From positions 1 to 46,108 of IMG/VR virus record IMGVR_UViG_3300048629_000047: a stretch of DNA of 46,108 nt, one strand, 5' to 3'. The position numbers and the translations under genes were made by a program. This DNA is from a virus (taxonomy: Duplodnaviria > Caudoviricetes). Every line of letters begins with the position of its first letter. The stretch's first letter is position 1. Under the pieces are notes generated by a model. The model saw only the letters and a list, made by a program, of their open reading frames with translations, was not told where the DNA came from and did no database searches. Shown one piece after another: positions 4,385 through 29,644 of this stretch.

Positions 4385-5653
4385 ATGAAAATTTGGCCTT
4401 TTAAAAAGAAAAACGACCTTGAAATTTCTGTAACCGACGCCAACGAAGACGTTGATCTGGAATCACTTTTCAGCGTACCTGCTGAAAATTTTCTTGACAA
4501 CATCACAGTTGACAGCCTTAAAAAAACGGTTACTCGAATGCTCCAGGATGAGCAGGTCTTCTCTGAGTATTCGACCTTCAAAAGTTTTGTTACGTCCGCT
4601 GAACACGACATTGACGCGGAAAACGAGACTATCAAAGAGGAAGCCGCGCAGTACTTGAAAAACATCGAGGTTCAGAAGCTGCTTGAGGCCCTCGATTATG
4701 GCTCGATAATCTGCGAAGTCATTTGGGACGACCCTGCGAACAACGCTGGAAAGTGGGTAATCAAGCGCCTTAAAACGCTTGACCCTGAACGCTACGGGTT
4801 TAATAAAGCCGGTCAAATAGTTGACCGCGAAAATGATATAGTCCTCGATCAACCCTATAAATTTATCAGCGTTTCTCACGACGTGCGCAACGATAACCCG
4901 CAAGGTAACTCACTTTTACTTAAAGCTTACTGGCCTTGGTTTTTCCGCAAAACCTGTATCCGCGCGGGTATGCTCTACACAAAGAAGGCGATCATCCCCT
5001 CCCTCGTGGCGATTTATAAAAGCGCAATCGATCAAAAAACAACAGAAGCAAACGGTGCGGCAATCGCAAAAAAACTCACCGCGCTGGCGAACTCTTCGGC
5101 GGTGGCCATGGCTAACGTCGACAGCGTTCAATCAATCAACGCGACCTCAAAAGGCACGGACATCGTCAACTTGATTGAGTTGTTCAATCGGATGATTTCA
5201 AAAGCATTTCTAGGGACGTCTACTCTCACTAACGATTCCCGGTATTCGAATCAAGGCGGCTCCGACAACCAGGTTGATTTAATCAAGACACGAGCGCGTG
5301 AGATCGCTGTCAACGAGTGGCAGCCTGCGATCAACACGTTACTATCCTGGACCTGGGAGCTGAATCACGGCGTCACGAAGGACGTGCCTTTTTACCGTTT
5401 CGTTTACGATTACGATCCGACCTTTGAGGAGCTGCTCAACGCGCAAAACGCGCGCATCCCCTTCAGCCTTGAGTGGTTCAGAAACAAATTCAACATCGAG
5501 GCTCCCAAAGACGACGACGATTCCTCGGTTAAAGACGCTCAAATTTTTTCAAGTAAAGTGGAGGCTGGCGACCGTTTTTTTCAGCGCGACGCGAAGCCGC
5601 CGAAGCTGATGACCGCGATCTCACGGATGCGACGGAATATTTCGGAGGATTAA
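4385..5653 (+). CDS. Portal protein (Mu gp29/DUF935-like)
   Basis: KFISVSHDVRNDNPQGNSLLLKAYWPWFFRK signature, ISKAFLG.TLT; followed by gpF. Confidence 0.85.
   Translation: MKIWPFKKKNDLEISVTDANEDVDLESLFSVPAENFLDNITVDSLKKTVTRMLQDEQVFSEYSTFKSFVTSAEHDIDAENETIKEEAAQYLKNIEVQKLLEALDYGSIICEVIWDDPANNAGKWVIKRLKTLDPERYGFNKAGQIVDRENDIVLDQPYKFISVSHDVRNDNPQGNSLLLKAYWPWFFRKTCIRAGMLYTKKAIIPSLVAIYKSAIDQKTTEANGAAIAKKLTALANSSAVAMANVDSVQSINATSKGTDIVNLIELFNRMISKAFLGTSTLTNDSRYSNQGGSDNQVDLIKTRAREIAVNEWQPAINTLLSWTWELNHGVTKDVPFYRFVYDYDPTFEELLNAQNARIPFSLEWFRNKFNIEAPKDDDDSSVKDAQIFSSKVEAGDRFFQRDAKPPKLMTAISRMRRNISED
5560..5581 (+). promoter_or_regulatory. Candidate -1 frameshift signal (internal SD plus T TTT TTT) linking portal to gpF
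   Basis: GGAGG 5560-5564, 10-nt spacer, T7 at 5575-5581 in X XXY YYZ phase; -1 frame open from 5557 to 6513. Confidence 0.7.
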
Positions 5654-6513
5654 TCGCCGATAATCTTTGGCCGGAGCTTTACGCGAAAGTCGAAGATGAA
5701 AATCCTACACCGGGAGAGCCTTATATCACCGACGCCAGCGCGATTAATGAGGAGGGCACCATCAATACACACCTCCTCGGTTTTGCTCACGTGGCGCGCA
5801 ACGTCGCAACGCAAGAGGGGGACAACAAAACACTTAGTATGTTCGCCGCCGACACCCCCGTGATTGACGAACGAACTATTGAAACGATTCTTGAAGACGC
5901 TGGCGTCGGAAAAGATTACATTCGCGAGCTGGAGGCCGCGTTGCAAGATACGCTCCCGGTGCGCGCGAAGCTTGACTTCTACGACAGCATGAAGACTCTT
6001 CAAAAATATTTAGCAGAGAACGTACCGACCGGGATGGGCCTGCGAGAGTTCATCGACAGCGTCGGCAAAGACGAGGTCATGACCGCGCTGGGTATCTCGC
6101 CGGAGAACCCGCATTATATCGAAACGGTCTATCGGACCAACTACGGCACGGCTCACAGTGCGGGACGCTGGGCAGCTTCGCAGGCTTCTAAAAGCGTTGT
6201 ACTGCTTGAGTACCAAGCTGTCATGGACAACCGCACAACGCCTATTTGCAGCGAGCTGAACGGTGTGATCCTGCCGAAGGATCACCCGTTCTGGGACGCA
6301 CATTACCCACTTAACCACTTCTCCTGCCGGTCAACGGTGACAGAGCTGACGGAGTCTTATGTCGAGATCGAGGGCATCGAAGAGACACAAACACCGCTGA
6401 TTGACGCTGATATTATCCATAAAGATTTCAACACGAACCCAGGGCAATCGCTCGATTGGATGAAACCATCAAAAGGCATGAAAGAAAGGCTCGCGAGTTA
6501 TGAAGCGCCGTAG
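5581..6513 (+). CDS. Minor head protein Mu gpF / SPP1 gp7-like, probably translated as a portal fusion (track start GTG 5791)
   Basis: ETVYRTNYGTAHSAGRW, YQAVMDNRTTPICSELNG, HPFW..HYPLNHFSCRSTV; frame is open 78 codons upstream of the SD-less GTG. Confidence 0.85.
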   Translation, partial: SARREAAEADDRDLTDATEYFGGLIADNLWPELYAKVEDENPTPGEPYITDASAINEEGTINTHLLGFAHVARNVATQEGDNKTLSMFAADTPVIDERTIETILEDAGVGKDYIRELEAALQDTLPVRAKLDFYDSMKTLQKYLAENVPTGMGLREFIDSVGKDEVMTALGISPENPHYIETVYRTNYGTAHSAGRWAASQASKSVVLLEYQAVMDNRTTPICSELNGVILPKDHPFWDAHYPLNHFSCRSTVTELTESYVEIEGIEETQTPLIDADIIHKDFNTNPGQSLDWMKPSKGMKERLASYEAP

Positions 6514-14287: not shown

Positions 14288-14811
14288 GCGGTCACCCACT
14301 CTTTCAAGTCAATATCGATTTCAGCAAAAAGAATTTCACCGTTGGTTCGGTGCTTTTCGCGAACGTTAAAACTCTCAATCGTAAAATCACCGCGATAAGA
14401 ATCACCAACGTAAAAAGGTGCGGGCTCCTGCGAGTCATGCAGCGCGCGGATCTCCTCGATGTATTTTGTAACATCCGTGTAAAGGCGTTCGTCTTCGGAT
14501 TTGTCGCCCATTCGATCACCAACGAGTTTGCCCGCACCGAATGATAGCGCAACTTTCCCGAGCACACCGGTTGAAATAATCTCGAAAACCATCGTTGAGA
14601 TTTTAAGTGAAAACGAATAGGTCTCAAGCTCAAGCCCGGATACCTCACGCAGCGGCTTCTGGCCCTGATACTCTCCGTTTGAAGCTGTCGTCACTATCCG
14701 AGGATGATCTGTGAACTTGGCTGATTTACTGCGTGACAGCGAGCCGTAAACGGGCGACGTTAAAAATTCGAAAACAATATCACCGAGCGAGCCCCATACT
14801 AATTTGCTCAT
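14284..14811 (-). CDS. Tail tube initiator, P2 gpU-like
   Basis: WGSLGDIVFE, KPLRE..GLELE, G.FTIESF, IDLKEW; follows tape measure. Confidence 0.8.
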   Translation of the reverse strand: MSKLVWGSLGDIVFEFLTSPVYGSLSRSKSAKFTDHPRIVTTASNGEYQGQKPLREVSGLELETYSFSLKISTMVFEIISTGVLGKVALSFGAGKLVGDRMGDKSEDERLYTDVTKYIEEIRALHDSQEPAPFYVGDSYRGDFTIESFNVREKHRTNGEILFAEIDIDLKEWVTA

Positions 14812-16736
14812 TTAAACGGCCCCGCTTTCGGACTATTACCCGTGTAAAGTGTCGACGTACTTTGATTCCAGGATACCGCCTCGCGCTTGCGTTTGCGCTG
14901 TATACGTTCTAGAGCCTTCTCCATTTCGCGTGCTGCATCGCGCGCTGCTTTCTCTGTTGTCGTATTCGGGTCCGACGACACGTTGACATTAAGCGCGTTA
15001 ATCAACATATCGCCGACCCCGCCTCCGCCCGCTGCTACACGTTTTTCTTTCGCGTCCGCCGCTTTGTAATACTCGGTCTGCGCGTCCATGATTCGCCGGT
15101 CCTGCGCCTTCGTGTCGAATTTCAAAGAGCGCACGGAGCTTGTCGCATCATCAACTACGCCGAGATCTTTGAGCACGCCGAGAACGGCTTCGTGTAAATA
15201 AATTATTCCGTCAAGTATCTCGTTGACCGCAGCCATTGCGCCATATTTCATTTGTTCCCAAATGATCGTCCACGAGTACCCTGTCAAAGAAAACTCTTCT
15301 CTGAACGCGACAAACGCGACGATTGCGCCCACTATCAGCGTAGTTATCAGCACGAGAGGGTTAGCGAGCATCGCGACGGTGAGCGCTTTAAAAGCCATGG
15401 TCACGCCCTTAATAACCCCCGCTATACCCAACGCAATTTTAAGCGCACCGAGGCCGATAACCAACGTAGCTGCAACGGTCCAGATTTTTACAAGCGTTGT
15501 TATCAGGCCCTTATTCTCTTGCGCAAACTTGCCGACGCTTTTGATGATCGGCGTCAACTGTTTGAGCATATCGGTCATGACCGGCGCGGCTGCGCGCCCG
15601 AAGTCCTCCCAAGCCGTTGCGAGGTTTTGCATAGTTTGACGGTATTTAAAGAGCGTCGTCTTACTCATCTTGTCGGCTTGTTTTGCCATAAGCCCCTGCG
15701 AGTTTCGCACTTTGTCCGTAGACTCCGCGAACTTCTCATTCGCAATCGTAGTAAGGGCGATAGCGGCTTTGCTTGCCTCGATGCGTCTAAAGACTTTGCC
15801 TAACATTTCGGCGCGCTTCGCCTCGCTGTCGGTGTAGTTATTGACGCCCTCGACAATGTCTTTAAGAGTTCCCTGCAAACCTTTTTGTTTAATCGTTACC
15901 GCGTTAACCTCGACGCCTAACTCTCTAAGCACCGCGCGCGCTTGCGAGCTGGGTTTTTGCAACGCGGTGAGCACACCGACGACTTGCGTCATGGATTCCG
16001 CCGTTGGATTGCCAACGGAGGTCAACGCAGCGATAGCGCCCATCGTTTCATCAAAAGCAATCCCCGCGCCCGCCGCTGTTGACGCGACGTTACCAAGGGA
16101 TTGACTCAATTCTACAACGGTTGTTTTACCGGCCTGGACCGCCGCGAACATTTGATCGCTGGCCTGTTCGAAGGTCATCCCCGAAGCCTGCCATGCGTTA
16201 ACCACCGTGGTTATTGCGTCAGCCGCGACGGCCATGTCAGTCTTGCCACCGACCGCAAGATTACCGGTCGCTTTTAGATACCTGTCAACCGCTTGTTCAG
16301 TGACGGGGACGCCCGAAGAAATACCGTCGTAAAGCGCCTTGATTGTGCTTTGAGCGTTTTGACCGAACGTCTTTCGAGTCGCATTAACTATCCCGCCGAA
16401 CTTGGCTTCTATCTGCGCTGCTGTCAAATCGGTGAGCGTGGCGACCTCCGCCATACCCTCCTCGTACTTGCCGAACGCGCGCGCGGCAAGCGCAACCGGC
16501 GCGATCATCGCAGCGCCTATTCCGGCGGTCTTCATCCCACTAAAGATCTGATTTTGGCCTTTACGAATTTGGGCAGCCGACGCAGCAAAGCCGGTCCGCA
16601 TCTGTGCGAACGCGACTTTCCACTGGCCTTCAACGCGGTTGGCGACGTTACCGCTTGTCACCTGCATCTGTTTCAAGCCGCGTGTCAGCTCGTCTTTGAG
16701 TACGAGCCTTAATGCTGCTTCGTAGACGTCAGCCAT
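14808..16736 (-). CDS. Tail tape measure protein (TP901-type core)
   Basis: ALYDGISSG, SDQMFAAVQAGKTTVVELSQSLG, helical Ala-rich with hydrophobic segment. Confidence 0.92.
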   Translation of the reverse strand: MADVYEAALRLVLKDELTRGLKQMQVTSGNVANRVEGQWKVAFAQMRTGFAASAAQIRKGQNQIFSGMKTAGIGAAMIAPVALAARAFGKYEEGMAEVATLTDLTAAQIEAKFGGIVNATRKTFGQNAQSTIKALYDGISSGVPVTEQAVDRYLKATGNLAVGGKTDMAVAADAITTVVNAWQASGMTFEQASDQMFAAVQAGKTTVVELSQSLGNVASTAAGAGIAFDETMGAIAALTSVGNPTAESMTQVVGVLTALQKPSSQARAVLRELGVEVNAVTIKQKGLQGTLKDIVEGVNNYTDSEAKRAEMLGKVFRRIEASKAAIALTTIANEKFAESTDKVRNSQGLMAKQADKMSKTTLFKYRQTMQNLATAWEDFGRAAAPVMTDMLKQLTPIIKSVGKFAQENKGLITTLVKIWTVAATLVIGLGALKIALGIAGVIKGVTMAFKALTVAMLANPLVLITTLIVGAIVAFVAFREEFSLTGYSWTIIWEQMKYGAMAAVNEILDGIIYLHEAVLGVLKDLGVVDDATSSVRSLKFDTKAQDRRIMDAQTEYYKAADAKEKRVAAGGGGVGDMLINALNVNVSSDPNTTTEKAARDAAREMEKALERIQRKRKREAVSWNQSTSTLYTGNSPKAGPFK

Positions 16737-20964: not shown

Positions 20965-21328
20965 CGTTAAAAGTCTCCGGGGGCGTGGGAGGCGCGCCGT
21001 GATTGAACTTTACAGCTATTGACTGCTTGATTGCGGAGTAGTCGAGGACGTACGAGACGAACAACTTTAGCAGCTCGACAATCGAATACCTCAACACAAT
21101 GAGCTTGGTTAAAATTGCCCTGGACCTAATCGCCGCGAACACGTCGTTTCTGTCAATCTGTTGATACAGCGTTGTGCCCTCGCCGCTGTAAGGCACTGAT
21201 AGCGCGGGCGTCGTGGCTTCTCTGAGGATTCCTTTTGAGCAACGAAAGTGTCTTTCGAAATCGTCGCCACCTAGTTCCTCGAACGACAACCGCCTGAAAC
21301 TTGCTGCTTGTGTCTGCGGTGTCGTCAT
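20951..21328 (-). CDS. Probable baseplate W / gp25-like sheath initiator
   Basis: Size, position upstream of J, SVPY..EG..L...ID motif. Confidence 0.55.
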   Translation of the reverse strand: MTTPQTQAASFRRLSFEELGGDDFERHFRCSKGILREATTPALSVPYSGEGTTLYQQIDRNDVFAAIRSRAILTKLIVLRYSIVELLKLFVSYVLDYSAIKQSIAVKFNHGAPPTPPETFNDADL

Positions 21329-21510
21329 TACGTTTTGTCCTTTACGAGGTCGATAAATTTTTCAAATAGCACCGAAAAGTAATCAACAGGCATAGCCATG
21401 AAATCATCATAGTTAAGCGCAACACCGCTTGACCAAAGGGTCGCGTGAATCTCTGCAGCCTGGTCTTCGGTTAAACAAGGAACCTTGCCAACTTCGCCCA
21501 GACAGTTTGA
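21328..21510 (-). CDS. Frameshift extension of the tail assembly chaperone (gpGT / P2 E+E'-like)
   Basis: -1 frame after T TTT TTT (21516-21510) reads SNCLGEV...LWSSGVALNYDDFMAMPVDYFSVLFEKFIDLVKDKT*, and its stop overlaps the next ATG. Confidence 0.75.
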   Translation of the reverse strand, partial: SNCLGEVGKVPCLTEDQAAEIHATLWSSGVALNYDDFMAMPVDYFSVLFEKFIDLVKDKT

Positions 21511-21848
21511 AAAAAAGATTCGTCAAGCGCCTCTATCTGTGTGCAATCCCACTTCTCGCCGTCGAAAGTAAGCATCACGGAAGCCTTGGCGATCATCGTC
21601 TCCATCGTCGAAGGCTCATAACCGTCCAGGTTTTTACCGTAGTAAGCTTTCGCAACGCGAGTAGCCAAAACGCTGTCAGCCATACGAGCCTTACGCGAGA
21701 GACGAACCTTCGGAAAAATTTTAACATTTGCTTCTTCAAAACCTTCCTCGATATCCACGTCCCACCCGTGATCTTCAAGTTCTTGATCGATCACATCCTT
21801 GGTCTCTTCGAGCACTGCGCGTGCTTCCTTTAATTTGTTCCCACTCAT
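21471..21848 (-). CDS. Tail assembly chaperone
   Basis: Directly downstream of tube gene; slippery site near 3' end. Confidence 0.75.
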   Translation of the reverse strand: MSGNKLKEARAVLEETKDVIDQELEDHGWDVDIEEGFEEANVKIFPKVRLSRKARMADSVLATRVAKAYYGKNLDGYEPSTMETMIAKASVMLTFDGEKWDCTQIEALDESFFQTVWAKLARFLV

Positions 21849-21854
21849 TTTAAA

Positions 21855-22397
21855 CTACCCTCCGAGAATGTTTTGAACAGCGCTCAACAGGTCCACGCTG
21901 TCGATTTTGAACTTGCTGTTTACAAAGTCGAAATCAATCACGTTGAGAAAATTGACGTCCACCTTGTAGCTCAGCATTTTGAACTTTGCGGTAAGCTCGC
22001 GCTTCGCGCCCTGCTTGATTGTCCCGTCGTCGACAGCGTAAAACTGCGCGCCGATTGTGTACGTGACCGGCATCGGCAGAAACTGCCCGAGCTGGGGATT
22101 GAGCGAATTTTGAGCAATCGCGATTTTGAACGATTGAAGCTTGGTTGCGTCCATAAGCTTGCCGAGCAAACGTCCGTCCATCGATTCGACTTTCACCTCG
22201 CCGTCGCCGTCGGGCTGCCGCCTCCAGGGGTTGGCGACTTCAATCTCGCCACCTGTCGAGGTGTTATCAAAGGTTTCTGTCGCCGACGAGACGCCGGGAA
22301 CCTTAACTTCTGCAATATATGGCATCGGGTCGCCGTCGAAAAAAATCGACATAGCCGCGACCTGGAAGCCTTTTGTGAGTTCTAATGACGTGGCCAT
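21855..22397 (-). CDS. Contractile tail tube protein (P2 FII-like)
   Basis: EVKVP, GGEIEV, YKVDVN...IDFDFVN...IDSVDLL; follows sheath. Confidence 0.85.
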   Translation of the reverse strand: MATSLELTKGFQVAAMSIFFDGDPMPYIAEVKVPGVSSATETFDNTSTGGEIEVANPWRRQPDGDGEVKVESMDGRLLGKLMDATKLQSFKIAIAQNSLNPQLGQFLPMPVTYTIGAQFYAVDDGTIKQGAKRELTAKFKMLSYKVDVNFLNVIDFDFVNSKFKIDSVDLLSAVQNILGG

Positions 22398-25868: not shown

Positions 25869-26888
25869 CTAAGAAATTACCGCGTTGCTGTCGACCATGG
25901 CCTCGGGACTGAACAGGCCGACAGGCCGCCACTGGACCATGATGTCCACGAACTCGCCGCCCGGGTCCTGGACCTGATTGATGAGCACGAATTTCTGTCC
26001 CCCGATGGCTTTGAGGTTTTCGAGTTCCAGGGATACCATCGTGGCGGGCGCGCTTGTGTCGATCATCCGCATCTTCTTTGCGGGGATTGCGTTACCTGCG
26101 GCCTGCGTCTCCGGGTCGACCAAGTCGCCGTCGAATTTCTTGATCGTGTAAGAGCCTACCTGCAACGTGTCGATGTCAATCCTCTTGCCACCGATTACGC
26201 TGTTGTTTGTCTTGCCGTCCAGGAGGTTGAAAATCGCATTCCATACCGCCGTGCGTGCGTAGATTACGATTGCGTTCGGGTTGCGGAAGTAGTTGCGATA
26301 AGCAACGGCCTTGCCTTTTTCTCGCATCGCGTCGAGGTGAACAACCACGTCAGCGAGCGTCGCGCCCGCAGCATCAAAGAGCGTGCCTGGCGCGCCGGTC
26401 GCGGGCATCGTCCCAAGACTGTAAACGTTGGTACCGTAGGCACCATCGAGCAGCATCTTGTAAGAGCAATTGCCGGTGGTGAGAAAGTGTCGCGCAAACC
26501 ATTCCATGTTCATCGTGATCGTCTCTTTGATAAACGTCACGTGCTCGGCCAACCAAGCCTTGTACTCTTTGCCTTTGAGGTTCTTAGCGGCTTTGAAAGC
26601 CTTCGCCTCTAAGCGCTGGTGAGCCTTGAACGGCGGGGTTGTGATACTGTCGAGCGTTCCCGACTTGCCGGAGATAGCGACACCGCGCCCGGCCTGCGGG
26701 CTGAACGGCACGGCCTGGATTGTCTGCGCGACAAGTTCACGCGAAACGTGATCACTTGGCACCGTACGCTTGCGTTTGAAAACGTTGGTCATCATTTCTT
26801 GCGGTTCGGTTTTGATCTCTCCGAGGACCTGCAAAAGAAGTTCCGGTTTAATTTTCAGAGCCGGATCGATAGTTGTTACAAAACTCAT
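25869..26888 (-). CDS. Major capsid protein (lambda gpE-like)
   Basis: 339 aa after protease and decoration genes; AVPFSPQAGRG, EWFARHFLTTG, QDPGG...VQWRP. Confidence 0.8.
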   Translation of the reverse strand: MSFVTTIDPALKIKPELLLQVLGEIKTEPQEMMTNVFKRKRTVPSDHVSRELVAQTIQAVPFSPQAGRGVAISGKSGTLDSITTPPFKAHQRLEAKAFKAAKNLKGKEYKAWLAEHVTFIKETITMNMEWFARHFLTTGNCSYKMLLDGAYGTNVYSLGTMPATGAPGTLFDAAGATLADVVVHLDAMREKGKAVAYRNYFRNPNAIVIYARTAVWNAIFNLLDGKTNNSVIGGKRIDIDTLQVGSYTIKKFDGDLVDPETQAAGNAIPAKKMRMIDTSAPATMVSLELENLKAIGGQKFVLINQVQDPGGEFVDIMVQWRPVGLFSPEAMVDSNAVIS

Positions 26889-26899
26889 TTAAGGACCTC

Positions 26900-27295
26900 C
26901 TATACCACCGCGTCTACGACGTTGATGTTTTTGGCGCGCAGCGCGTTGACGAGTACCAGCTTCTTGGCAGCAGTGTTGACAGCGGTCATACCCAAAGCGC
27001 CGAAGTGACAGGTCGCGTTTTTTGCGTAACCGAGGATTACGTTTGTTCCCGCGTCGGTCACAATCGAGTCGATGATCCCGAGAACCACGAGCGCCGCCTT
27101 GTCGGTCTCGTCATAGATCGCGTGCTTGTTGCTGTCGTCTGTTTTGTAACAGAGCACGTCCCCGATTGCGGGTGTGTAACCTGCTGTCGCCTCGTCAAAC
27201 TCTGTCGCCTCAAGCTCCAGGTAGGTCCCGGCAACATACAGCTCGGTATTTTCGGCGTAGGTCCCTACGGTTGATTTCTGATTAAAAGCAGTCAT
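26900..27295 (-). CDS. Head decoration protein (lambda gpD-like)
   Basis: 131 aa between protease and capsid; IGDVL, GII, ALRAKNI. Confidence 0.7.
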   Translation of the reverse strand: MTAFNQKSTVGTYAENTELYVAGTYLELEATEFDEATAGYTPAIGDVLCYKTDDSNKHAIYDETDKAALVVLGIIDSIVTDAGTNVILGYAKNATCHFGALGMTAVNTAAKKLVLVNALRAKNINVVDAVV

Positions 27296-27305
27296 AGCCT
27301 ACCTC

Positions 27306-27695
27306 CTAGTACAGACAGTCAACGGCTTCGCGCCCGCTGAAAGTCTCTTTCGGTTTTTCGGTTTCGACGTCCTCACCTTGTGGGTCGGTGACCTCGCCCG
27401 GCTTTACCGGCGCAACGTGTGCGTCGATGACGGCGGCGAAAGAATCGAAAACGCCCTTGTTTACTGCGCCGGAGACGAAGGCGTCTTCGAGCGAAGCGAT
27501 GTTTTCGAACATACTCTTGCGAACGTCTTCGTTCAGCCCTTTGGCCTCCGCGCTCTTTTTGAGGGCTTCGGTGATGCTCGCAAACTCTTCACGCTTTGCG
27601 TTTTCACGAGCGGTGGCGAACTCTTCAAGGTCCTTCTTGAGCTTCTCATTCTCGGCCTTCAACGCCTCGAATGCCTTTTTCTCTTCTTCGTTCAT
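27306..27695 (-). CDS. Nested scaffolding protein (Mu gpZ-like) from an internal in-frame start
   Basis: AAAGGAG SD before in-frame ATG 27695 (MNEEEKKAFEALKAENEKLKK). Confidence 0.75.
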   Translation of the reverse strand: MNEEEKKAFEALKAENEKLKKDLEEFATARENAKREEFASITEALKKSAEAKGLNEDVRKSMFENIASLEDAFVSGAVNKGVFDSFAAVIDAHVAPVKPGEVTDPQGEDVETEKPKETFSGREAVDCLY

Positions 27696-28187
27696 TTCTG
27701 AATCTCCTTTCCGAGGCGTTGCCCGGAACATTAAAATGGTCTTATCCTCAGACACTTTGACTTCAGCATAATCACGCGTGTTAACGCGCGCCGAGAAGTT
27801 ATGTGTCTCTTCTAAATCTTTAAAAGCCGCGCCAACACTGCCTAACAGCGCCAAGTGGTCGACTTCCCACCCGCGCTTTTTTGTTTTGAAAATACCTAGT
27901 GACCACCCCGGATAGGCGTTGTCTTTATAATCGTTGTCCACCTCTCCCCGGAGGTCGACGTCACCTAAAAGGGTGTCATCGGATTCACGCACGCGCAGAT
28001 TAGTCAGTGACCCTGCGGCTTTTGTCGCGTCACTCCAATACCCTAACGCCGCGTCGTGACCGACGGCGACAGGGTATTTTGTTTTGCTCGAATAGTTCTT
28101 GACCATTTGGGCCAGCATTGACGCGGTTATGCGCCGCTGGTCATCAACGGTTTTTGGGTACATGAGTTCAAAGGTTCGCACAGTCAT
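27306..28187 (-). CDS. Prohead protease/scaffold (Mu gpI-like)
   Basis: PVAVGH, AAG, YPGWS, HLALLG...AFKDL protease domain followed by charged coiled coil. Confidence 0.85.
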   Translation of the reverse strand: MTVRTFELMYPKTVDDQRRITASMLAQMVKNYSSKTKYPVAVGHDAALGYWSDATKAAGSLTNLRVRESDDTLLGDVDLRGEVDNDYKDNAYPGWSLGIFKTKKRGWEVDHLALLGSVGAAFKDLEETHNFSARVNTRDYAEVKVSEDKTILMFRATPRKGDSEMNEEEKKAFEALKAENEKLKKDLEEFATARENAKREEFASITEALKKSAEAKGLNEDVRKSMFENIASLEDAFVSGAVNKGVFDSFAAVIDAHVAPVKPGEVTDPQGEDVETEKPKETFSGREAVDCLY

Positions 28188-28237
28188 GCTACCGATTTGC
28201 TGCCTGCATCGAGGTTTGTCAAAAACTTTTACAACAA

Positions 28238-29644
28238 TCAGTATCCATCTGTGTCGTGATAATCAGGTTCCCCCATGTATTTTAAATTGTGGCCTAGAAG
28301 GTTATCGAAGGACGCCTCGGCCTCGGGAGTTATGTTTTTTTCTCTTGTTAAATCGAACCAAACCCGCATAGCTGCTGCGTCCGAGAGGTCCGGCGACCGG
28401 CCTATGTTTTTCTTTACCTGCTCTTTAGACAACAGGAAAAGTTTCCCGTCTTTATCGAGGCGGTCGCGTTTTACTTGGTTCAACTCTTCTGACAACCGGT
28501 CCTTTAAATCGCCGTCGTTACCGGCGTCAACGTACAGTTGGCTTGATTGTATTCTCTTTGCTAACTCAAAGTAACACTGTGTTTTGAGGTTCGCATAATT
28601 TTCTTTATAATCTTCGTTACCACGTGGGAGCGCTGCCGCCCCGTTGTGGAAAGGGTTTGCGCCTTCGAGGTAGCTACCAAGATAGCTGCCGAGACCATCC
28701 GCATCAAAGACGATATTAGAGCGCGGGACCTTGTACTCACGCGCGGCATCTTTGATCGCGTCTTCTACTTCTTTGCCTGTCGATTTTTCAAACGTGAGAA
28801 TTTTCTCAACACGCCACCCTGACCAAACAAAGATGACAAACAAGTCCGAGCCCTGCATCGCAATGTCGGCGGTTATAAATTTGTCGCCCTTGGGGACGTG
28901 GTCGTTTGTAAACACGTCGACTATTTTGTTGTACTCGATAAGCCGCGCCGGGTCGCTGTCATATTCCCAGTTGCCCTCCAAGAGTCGTTCGCGGTCCACG
29001 TCGTCGAGGCGGGACAAAGACTCGGCGTAGTGTTTAGATATAAATCTATTGTGCCTCGCGAGAACAGGCACGTAAGCGCGGTAAGCAGGTAAGCGGCCCT
29101 CTACGTAAGGCTTGTAGAAATCGCGGTACAGCCAGCCCTTGTGCGGATTGCAGCTCATGTAAAGTTTTGGGATTAATCTAAACTCATCGAGTTTGTATCT
29201 GATACGTGAGTAAACAATCCCTTTACACCTCTGCGTTACCTCTGCTGCCTCGTCTATCGCTGCTGCTGTAAGCTCAAGCGAGCCGAGCCGCGTGTACTCG
29301 GGGTCACTCGGCTTGTGTGCGAGATCCATCAAAAATATAGTTGACTCGTTCGCAAAATTTATTGTTGATGTCTGCCAGTTAATTGAAAAATGTTTGTTAA
29401 TCTCGACGCCCTGGATTTTACAGACTTCAAGAAAAGTCATGAGTGTTGTTTTTTTAAGTTGTGTTAACTCGTAGCGTCCCATCAACGTGCGCGATCCAGG
29501 ATATTTAAGAGCGACTTTTAAAAGCCAGAACGACAGCATAAAAGACTTAGAGCCTCCGGCCCCCCCGCCTACAAGCAGCTCGTTTGTTTTGTCGTCCTGG
29601 AGGTAATCCAGGATCTGAATCTGCTCTTTAAATAGCGTCGCCAT
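28238..29644 (-). CDS. terL: Terminase large subunit
   Basis: GGGAGGSKS Walker A, AAIDEA Walker B, SCNP, ADIA..GSD, GRSPDLSDA nuclease motifs. Confidence 0.95.
   Translation of the reverse strand: MATLFKEQIQILDYLQDDKTNELLVGGGAGGSKSFMLSFWLLKVALKYPGSRTLMGRYELTQLKKTTLMTFLEVCKIQGVEINKHFSINWQTSTINFANESTIFLMDLAHKPSDPEYTRLGSLELTAAAIDEAAEVTQRCKGIVYSRIRYKLDEFRLIPKLYMSCNPHKGWLYRDFYKPYVEGRLPAYRAYVPVLARHNRFISKHYAESLSRLDDVDRERLLEGNWEYDSDPARLIEYNKIVDVFTNDHVPKGDKFITADIAMQGSDLFVIFVWSGWRVEKILTFEKSTGKEVEDAIKDAAREYKVPRSNIVFDADGLGSYLGSYLEGANPFHNGAAALPRGNEDYKENYANLKTQCYFELAKRIQSSQLYVDAGNDGDLKDRLSEELNQVKRDRLDKDGKLFLLSKEQVKKNIGRSPDLSDAAAMRVWFDLTREKNITPEAEASFDNLLGHNLKYMGEPDYHDTDGY

Follow-up and report, generated by a model that had tools for sequence, protein, structure and literature searches.

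A conserved slippery sequence at the portal–MuF junction of a hydrothermal-vent phage points to conditional fusion of two head proteins

The junction between the portal gene and the downstream gene for a MuF minor head protein is, on comparative evidence, very probably a genuine recoding site in the phage genome described here, a stretch of 46,108 nt (hereafter, the window) that constitutes an entire virus record. The route that we favour, and consider likely, is a −1 ribosomal frameshift stimulated by a Shine-Dalgarno (SD) sequence, which would generate a 422-aa portal together with a 709-aa portal–MuF protein; we infer both its occurrence and the ratio of the two products. The programmed −1 change of frame from portal to MuF had been proposed in a sequence-only reading of this DNA, and it is now backed by the retention of the site, its phase and a startless −1 protein in five of five relatives, as well as by a survey of the family.

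The portal–MuF junction in the window

The window was found in two hydrothermal-vent metagenome runs and codes for terminase, major capsid, tail tube, baseplate J, tape measure, DNA polymerase A and amidase, a gene set from which we read it as the genome of a contractile-tailed phage with, presumably, a bacterial host. A genome scan with the alignment of close portals returned zero relatives and, hence, no host. The portal–MuF cassette (4385–6513, + strand) is distant from the terminase, in region 25869–29644 (− strand), which is directly followed by the capsid module on the strand opposite to the portal. The portal is at the end of a + strand series that includes SLT and amidase genes, and is convergent to the tail-fibre genes. 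The tape measure gene (14808–16736) is set apart from the tube and chaperone genes (21328–22397, − strand), with the baseplate genes in between, an order that differs from the usual one.

The portal gene (4385–5653, + strand; 422 aa in frame 0) is a member of the Portal_Mu/DUF935 family (PF06074, E 5.7e-39, 134.8 bits for a curated cut-off of 23.9; phrog_113, E 2.2e-43) and stops at TAA 5651–5653. Read in frame from 4385, it contains the sequence GTG GAG GCT GGC GAC CGT TTT TTT CAG, with the heptamer T TTT TTT at 5575–5581 (+ strand); its first T is the third position of the Arg397 codon in Arg397-Phe398-Phe399 (CGT TTT TTT), that is, in the X XXY YYZ phase of dnaX- and IS-type sites. On the sense strand, T7 in this phase occurs at four places in 12,771 codons (41 ORFs), two of which are the portal site and the tail site described below. 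An SD-like GGAGG (5560–5564, + strand), the likely stimulator of the shift, lies 10 nt upstream, within the spacing of 9–14 nt reported for bacterial −1 shifting (10 nt in dnaX; PMC5009743). Its anti-SD duplex energy, −10.2 kcal/mol, ranks at the 1.2nd percentile among 344 portal positions. For the scoring we assumed an E. coli-type anti-SD sequence, which may not match that of the host. No 3′ stem-loop, an element that is frequent but dispensable in sites of this type, was evident in the window (z +0.43 for 45 nt and +1.03 for 75 nt), and its T7 falls short of the A/T run of at least nine that typifies transcriptional slippage. Downstream of the heptamer, 5582–5653 (+ strand) would be dual-coding, specifying both the 23 frame-0 residues that end the short portal and the beginning of the −1 extension.

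Opening at 5557, behind TAA 5554, the −1 frame runs without a stop up to 6513. It includes a linker from the shift site to the MuF core (5581–5960, + strand; ca. 125 aa), whose first 70 residues lack a canonical start, and a MuF/gpF (SPP1 gp7-like) domain with its C-terminus (5961–6513, + strand; stop codon at 6511–6513), directly downstream of the portal, that exceeds the cut-offs of PF04233 (61 vs 29.6 bits, E 2.2e-16) and TIGR01641 (58.7 vs 39.65 bits, E 6.5e-16), and matches phrog_220 (E 5e-33). The first ATG, GTG or TTG in this frame is GTG 5791, followed by ATG 5839; anti-SD duplexes reach −2.9 kcal/mol for GTG 5791, −0.1 for ATG 5839 and −0.3 for GTG 5860. Because 28 of the 34 ordinary starts in the window score −5 kcal/mol or lower, the phage does use SD sequences and the canonical MuF starts are without one. 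Two non-AUG codons not mentioned in the sequence-only reading do have SD-like motifs nearby, with GGAGGA 3 nt before ATC 5653 and GAGGAGG 4–5 nt before ATC 5761. That reading had described the phase of the T7, the GGAGG 10 nt upstream, the −1 frame open from 5557 to 6513 into gpF, the absence of a start before an SD-less GTG 5791, and products of 422 and about 709 aa. The portal frame as read from 4385, the stop-free frame with its Phage_Mu_F match, the list of starts and the computed lengths (422 and 399 + 310 = 709 aa) agree with it on each of these points.

The linker (5581–5810 in the −1 frame) ends in an 'LLG..H' motif and shows a weak likeness both to the C-terminal domain of Mu-like portals and to the N-termini of free-standing MuF proteins. 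Comparison with the portal domain gave E 0.054 (6 vs 7 sequences), and P 0.0016 with a probability of 16% (65 vs 11 sequences), a hint only that the linker could be that domain.

An offset at a homopolymer might also arise if one in-frame fusion gene had been broken by an assembly error, or if the locus were a pseudogene. Homopolymers are error-prone, single-ORF fusions of equal size exist (see below), and our check of T7 length, which the sequence-only reading had called for in raw reads, was carried out on assembled contigs alone. Nevertheless, Logan contigs from two runs, X1 (depth 190) and X2 (depth 13), either of which could be the source of this DNA, match 5200–6100 with 0 differences and 0 gaps, so that the T7 is present in both assemblies and the window, with its frame-0 stop at 5651, does not hold a single-ORF fusion. 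Five independent genomes share the −1 offset, with 7 or 9 T, 122 of 147 surveyed loci (best 160 of 296 confirmed loci plus seven) have an overlapping −1 frame, and the frame-0 stop is conserved. With the T7 in both run assemblies, and the run and split kept in relatives, an assembly error or pseudogene is effectively refuted and has next to no probability.

Conservation among close relatives

From 7,998 scored candidates, 16 close portals, the window's included, were retained at E ≤ 1e-20; the 15 homologues are 423–457 aa long and show 44–77% identity. Phe-Phe is invariant in the 16 aligned portals, which are otherwise variable at the C-terminus. We analysed the junction DNA of five distinct relatives (L002, L003, L020, L021 and L024; 47–77% identity), leaving out L022, which ends before the junction, and the duplicates L017–L019 and L023. 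All five retain the portal/MuF split and a T run, T7 in L002 and T9 in the other four, and the run begins at codon position 3 in each of the six genomes. In the relatives, the −1 frame opens 0, 1, 1, 8 and 33 codons before the run and continues into MuF; the shift site is thus pinned, because in three of the five it opens merely 0–1 codons ahead of the run. The codon preceding Phe-Phe ends in T in all six genomes while encoding R, R, A, G, G and S, that is, four different amino acids, and selection therefore acts on the nucleotides.

Over 5656–5790, from the portal stop to GTG 5791, the −1 frame shows pN/pS values of 0.19–0.61 in 15 of 15 pairs, which are not independent of each other, and 254, 188 and 461 differences at the first, second and third codon positions, respectively. 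This substitution pattern shows purifying selection on the startless −1 stretch. Within the overlap, identity was higher in the −1 frame (167/372 codon pairs) than in frame 0 (127/363), with 55 silent changes vs 30. Site and −1 ORF are, then, conserved under selection, as in established −1 frameshifts. The frame-0 stop varies in position by no more than one codon across the six genomes, being TAG in five of them, whereas the window lost this TAG and has TAA one codon earlier; this conserved position suggests that the short portal is probably selected too. Start codons are not conserved: GTG 5791 is GTC in L003, and L021 has no start for 100 codons. Ile27 of the −1 frame, which overlaps the portal stop, is ATA or ATC in all six.

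An SD accompanies the run in two of the six close genomes, both with T7: the window (−10.2 kcal/mol) and L002 (−8.6 kcal/mol), which has GGGGG at the same 10-nt spacing. The four T9 relatives are without an SD (−0.9 to −2.1 kcal/mol), and no conserved 3′ hairpin was found in the six genomes of this group (z −1.7 to +1.5).

In L003, a TGA at ca. position 4962 breaks a MuF C-terminal motif (NHFT*RS), and conserved sequence continues in frame beyond it; the −1 ORF of L020 and protein P0017 stop at the same motif position. This TGA could possibly reflect readthrough or Cys-to-Sec recoding of a conserved Cys codon.

Survey of portal–MuF loci

A word-based search for longer, fused homologues retrieved none, although a profile search that used the −1 protein as query against 1.84 billion representatives later did find them. 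Among 14 long proteins scanned from the best 150 hits, eight were full-length Portal_Mu + Phage_Mu_F single ORFs, whose lengths (698–849 aa) bracket the predicted 709 aa, and one was partial. One such fusion, P0050, aligns to the portal (E 2.4e-18) and, linker included, to the −1 protein (E 1.8e-27), with the linker homologous to residues 457–520 of P0050. The DNA of fusions P0143 and P0050 was not found, and the search gave one distant locus, L028. The four top matches of the −1 protein begin at profile positions 35, 45, 65 and 97.

Using the alignment of the eight fusions as a query, we surveyed the best 80 of 89 confirmed GTDB loci and the best 80 of 207 from IMG/VR. The addition of six close loci and L028 gave 167 loci, 20 of which had no portal in the fetched DNA, leaving 147; all survey counts below refer to these best 160 of 296 confirmed loci plus seven. 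MuF was in an overlapping −1 frame in 122 loci, in the same ORF as the portal in 14, in the +1 frame in nine and behind an in-frame stop in two. An in-phase X XXY YYZ heptamer lay inside the overlap in 115 of the 122 −1 loci. Clustering at 70% MuF identity resulted in 65 clusters with 45 −1 representatives, of which 38 were slippery, compared with 2.1 expected from portal bodies. The seven −1 loci without a slippery heptamer comprise five with a start codon at most 7 nt from the portal stop, one that is N-masked and one unexplained. Named hosts in the survey include Treponema and other Spirochaetota, Desulfurobacteriaceae, Thermosulfurimonas, Nitrospirota, Nitrospinota and Acidobacteriota. Of the features that the sequence-only reading had proposed to follow across portal–gpF pairs, the heptamer and the −1 overlap are thus kept in most of these loci, but the SD is not a family-wide feature.

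Some loci depart from this arrangement. In L077 the portal ends with a T9 run and yet MuF is in the same frame after one TGA, which might be an assembly error, decay or a variant, while its cluster mates are of the −1 type. L048, L061 and L122 combine a slippery site with a start codon that overlaps the portal stop, and are possible intermediates between separate genes and a recoded fusion. MuF was present in nine of 13 distant DUF935 loci (L004–L016), by eye as separate genes with their own starts. INPHARED yielded 42 records, and identity was below 30% for all of the 40 listed.

Six of the 14 single-ORF fusions in the survey have A8–A11 at the junction, with a −1 stop within 0–5 codons, and eight lack such a run; four of the six are genes with background runs of 7–8. 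The L028 junction reads A AAA AAG. The A8–A11 junctions are those of L028 (2481–2493), L123, L085, L089, L097 and L103, where stops follow a few codons later in the other frames. It is possible that these fusions have a reversed polarity, with slipping yielding the short portal.

The nature of the signal varied with run length. Among the 38 slippery representatives of the survey, 27 have A/T runs of exactly 9 (20) or 10 (7), and 11 have runs of 3–8; runs of 9–10 are absent from the 36,018 nt that make up the portal bodies of these representatives. With an SD defined as −7 kcal/mol or lower at 7–20 nt upstream, a cut-off picked after seeing the data, 7 of the 11 representatives with short runs had an SD (1.01 expected on the basis of their own portals, P 5.5e-6) vs 1 of 27 with long runs (2.55 expected), a significant difference (Fisher p 1.9e-4). 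At 7–16 nt upstream, the counts were likewise 7 of 11 and 1 of 27. The SD signal peaks 11–14 nt upstream, in keeping with the 9–14 nt given for −1 shifting in PMC5009743. Each of the four short-run representatives that lack an SD has a 3′ hairpin (z −2.1 to −4.0), whereas the mean hairpin z for long-run representatives is 0.06. At the level of the 115 slippery loci, SD presence/absence was 17/25 for short runs vs 5/68 for long runs (p 3e-5). That only 17 of 42 short-run loci pass the cut-off is due to 22 T7 loci from Treponema prophages, whose purine-rich motifs are of modest strength (−3.3 to −8.5 kcal/mol) and which lack a hairpin; the cluster that they belong to entered the representative counts via a T9 locus, and two of its T9 loci score −8.9 kcal/mol. 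An upstream SD, put forward as the stimulator in the sequence-only reading, is therefore a feature of most short-run clusters, but not of the long-run clusters nor of four of the six close genomes.

In a quick tree of 86 portals, with one long branch and weak forks, the short-run form with an SD appears in the window's clade, in L146, in L070, in L032/L031/L116 and in L186. The window's clade is sister to the four T9 genomes, and the T7 with SD of the window and L002 is one common event. Heteropolymeric sites in the survey (C CCT TTT, C CCT TTC and T TTT TTC), as well as the G GGT TTC at which the tail gene of the closest relative would shift, fit with ribosomal slipping.

The tail site of the window was used for comparison. 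A probable tail-chaperone G/GT pair (21328–21848, − strand), outside the portal cassette, follows the tail tube gene and has T TTT TTT at 21516–21510, reading TCT TTT TTT CAA and leading to a −1 frame of 60 aa. A slippery heptamer and a conserved −1 tail were found in three of three relatives (T TTT TTT twice and G GGT TTC once). The shared T TTT TTT CA noted in the sequence-only reading is indeed there, but the chaperone identity derives from position only, with no Pfam match for the gene. A GAGG at 21529–21533 (− strand) lies 13 nt upstream of the tail heptamer (−5.8 kcal/mol), and may reflect a conserved Glu-Ala codon pair.

Weighing the routes to the fusion

The main competitor of SD-stimulated frameshifting is slippage of the RNA polymerase, whereby one extra U in some of the mRNAs would put MuF in frame and the GGAGG would be incidental. 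Efficient transcriptional slippage occurs on runs of 9 A or T, and Thermus thermophilus dnaX relies on it (PMC5009743). Because they lack an SD in 26 of 27 clusters and show, on average, no hairpin signal, the 9–10-nt runs of the survey, which make up 27 of 38 slippery clusters and occur in all three codon phases, fit this route, as do four of the five close relatives, with T9. We consider polymerase slippage likely for these A9–10/T9–10 relatives. For the window it is rather unlikely, since a T7 is too short for efficient slippage and the SD is at the reported spacing; besides, the T7 is flanked by G and C, exactly the heptamer is kept in L002, and an SD goes with short runs in other clades as well. 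Points against a ribosomal route in the window are the lack of a 3′ hairpin, the SD-less T9 of four of its five close relatives, and that U_UUU_UUU shifts far less readily than A_AAA_AAG in E. coli (PMC5009743). Both routes may also operate together.

Alternatively, MuF might be a separate protein initiated internally, at GTG 5791, ATG 5839 or by coupled re-initiation at AUC/AUA, with the T run incidental or vestigial. This would accord with the AUC/AUA codon (Ile27) kept over the portal stop in six of six genomes, with the SD-like motifs before ATC 5653 and ATC 5761, and with the separate portal and MuF genes of distant Mu-type phages. We find it improbable, because the canonical starts lack both conservation and an SD, the SD ahead of ATC 5653 leaves too little spacing and is missing in four relatives, and the −1 frame is better conserved than frame 0 upstream of Ile27. 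An internal start would also leave unexplained the invariant Phe-Phe with its T run and the 115 of 122 slippery sites in the survey.

Discussion

Under SD-stimulated frameshifting, our preferred reading for the window, two tRNA-Phe would re-pair from UUU UUU to the −1 UUU UUU, with GGAGG bound meanwhile by the 16S anti-SD in the manner of E. coli dnaX. Unshifted ribosomes would add 23 residues and stop, producing the 422-aa portal, and shifted ribosomes would add 310, to reach 709 aa. The shift is expected to be a minority event and the fusion a minor product, because U_UUU_UUU is weakly shifty in E. coli and SPP1 gp7, which binds the portal, is present in 1–2 copies per capsid (PMC5576092). 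Mixed portal rings would, then, bear a few MuF tails. From the binding of gp6 and gp7 in SPP1, where gp7 is needed for efficient infection (PMC6316719), we infer that MuF could act as a covalent portal tail, so that a tether and a fixed ratio would replace non-covalent binding. Across the family the signal would be interchangeable: a short heptamer with an SD, as in the window, a short heptamer with a hairpin, or a bare A9–10/T9–10 run. Many relatives, thus, probably slip by another route than the SD.

The closest functional parallel is the tail chaperone G/GT of lambda, with E/E+E′ of P2 (TTTTTTG) and 17.5/17.5* of SPP1 (UUUUUUC), which likewise relies on a −1 shift at a T-rich heptamer late in a morphogenesis gene (PMC3091744, PMC6316719), and likewise yields two products, one short and one extended, in a set ratio; sites of the P2 type also lack a 3′ hairpin, as in the window (PMC3091744). 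Unlike the chaperone, the window's genes encode a portal and a minor head protein, whose products would be parts of the virion. In E. coli dnaX (tau/gamma), the −1 ribosomal shift comes with an SD at the very spacing seen in the window and a 3′ stem-loop, while T. thermophilus dnaX, with 9 T, slips in transcription (PMC5009743), so that the dnaX family obtains two products by either route, as the portal–MuF family would. However, the window has U UUU UUU and no stem-loop, and it is the long product that needs the shift; the single-ORF A8–A11 relatives resemble the polarity of dnaX.

The same order of portal and MuF domains exists in one polypeptide in Microbacterium phages of subclusters EA3, EA5 and EA8 and of cluster EB (PMC7302621), but these are read in one frame, with no recoding described in the part of that source covered, whereas the window fusion would be conditional. 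In SPP1 (gp6–gp7) and Mu-like portal–gpF pairs, the MuF gene directly follows the portal, as in the window, although as separate genes whose products bind non-covalently, in contrast to the covalent fusion proposed here. Frameshift extensions of major capsid proteins (T7, T3, A2, A118, PSA, MSTV1) also provide a fraction of a virion protein with a C-terminal domain (PMC5009743, PMC11375127); those, however, concern capsid or tail-tube proteins and mostly Ig-like domains, rather than the portal.

Frameshifting in phage structural genes is, therefore, known, and the portal–MuF junction as its site was not found in print. Our search of the openly available full-text literature retrieved no description of portal–MuF recoding, although the GeneTack and PRFect tables could hold cases. 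There is none in the parts covered of PMC2628397, PMC7911831, PMC4493119, PMC4066793, PMC10299305 and PMC10367356, and the word 'portal' does not appear in those of PMC5009743, PMC3711429 and PMC10885494.

The locus adds statistical support for the SD as a stimulator, and a sign that signals are switched within one family, apparently between ribosomal and probably transcriptional slipping. With chances that we regard as evenly balanced, the portal–MuF junction could be, next to the tail chaperone, a second locus at which recoding is widely conserved in tailed phages. Phages of the Mu type from Spirochaetota, Aquificota, Thermodesulfobacteriota, Nitrospirota, Acidobacteriota and further groups would then build mixed rings of short and MuF-extended portals by means that were repeatedly swapped: an SD-dependent shift, a hairpin-dependent shift, polymerase slippage at A9/T9, or the reverse arrangement, with the fusion in frame and the short portal arising by slipping. 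MuF genes occur in 35% of 1753 tailed phages (PMC5576092), and gene callers clip recoded MuF genes at arbitrary internal starts. The versions of this locus with a short run and an SD, a short run and a hairpin, or a 9-nt run form a natural series in which ribosomal and transcriptional slipping could be told apart. A conditional covalent fusion, if true, would answer both the low copy number of MuF and its targeting to the portal, and predicts that portal rings are hetero-oligomeric.
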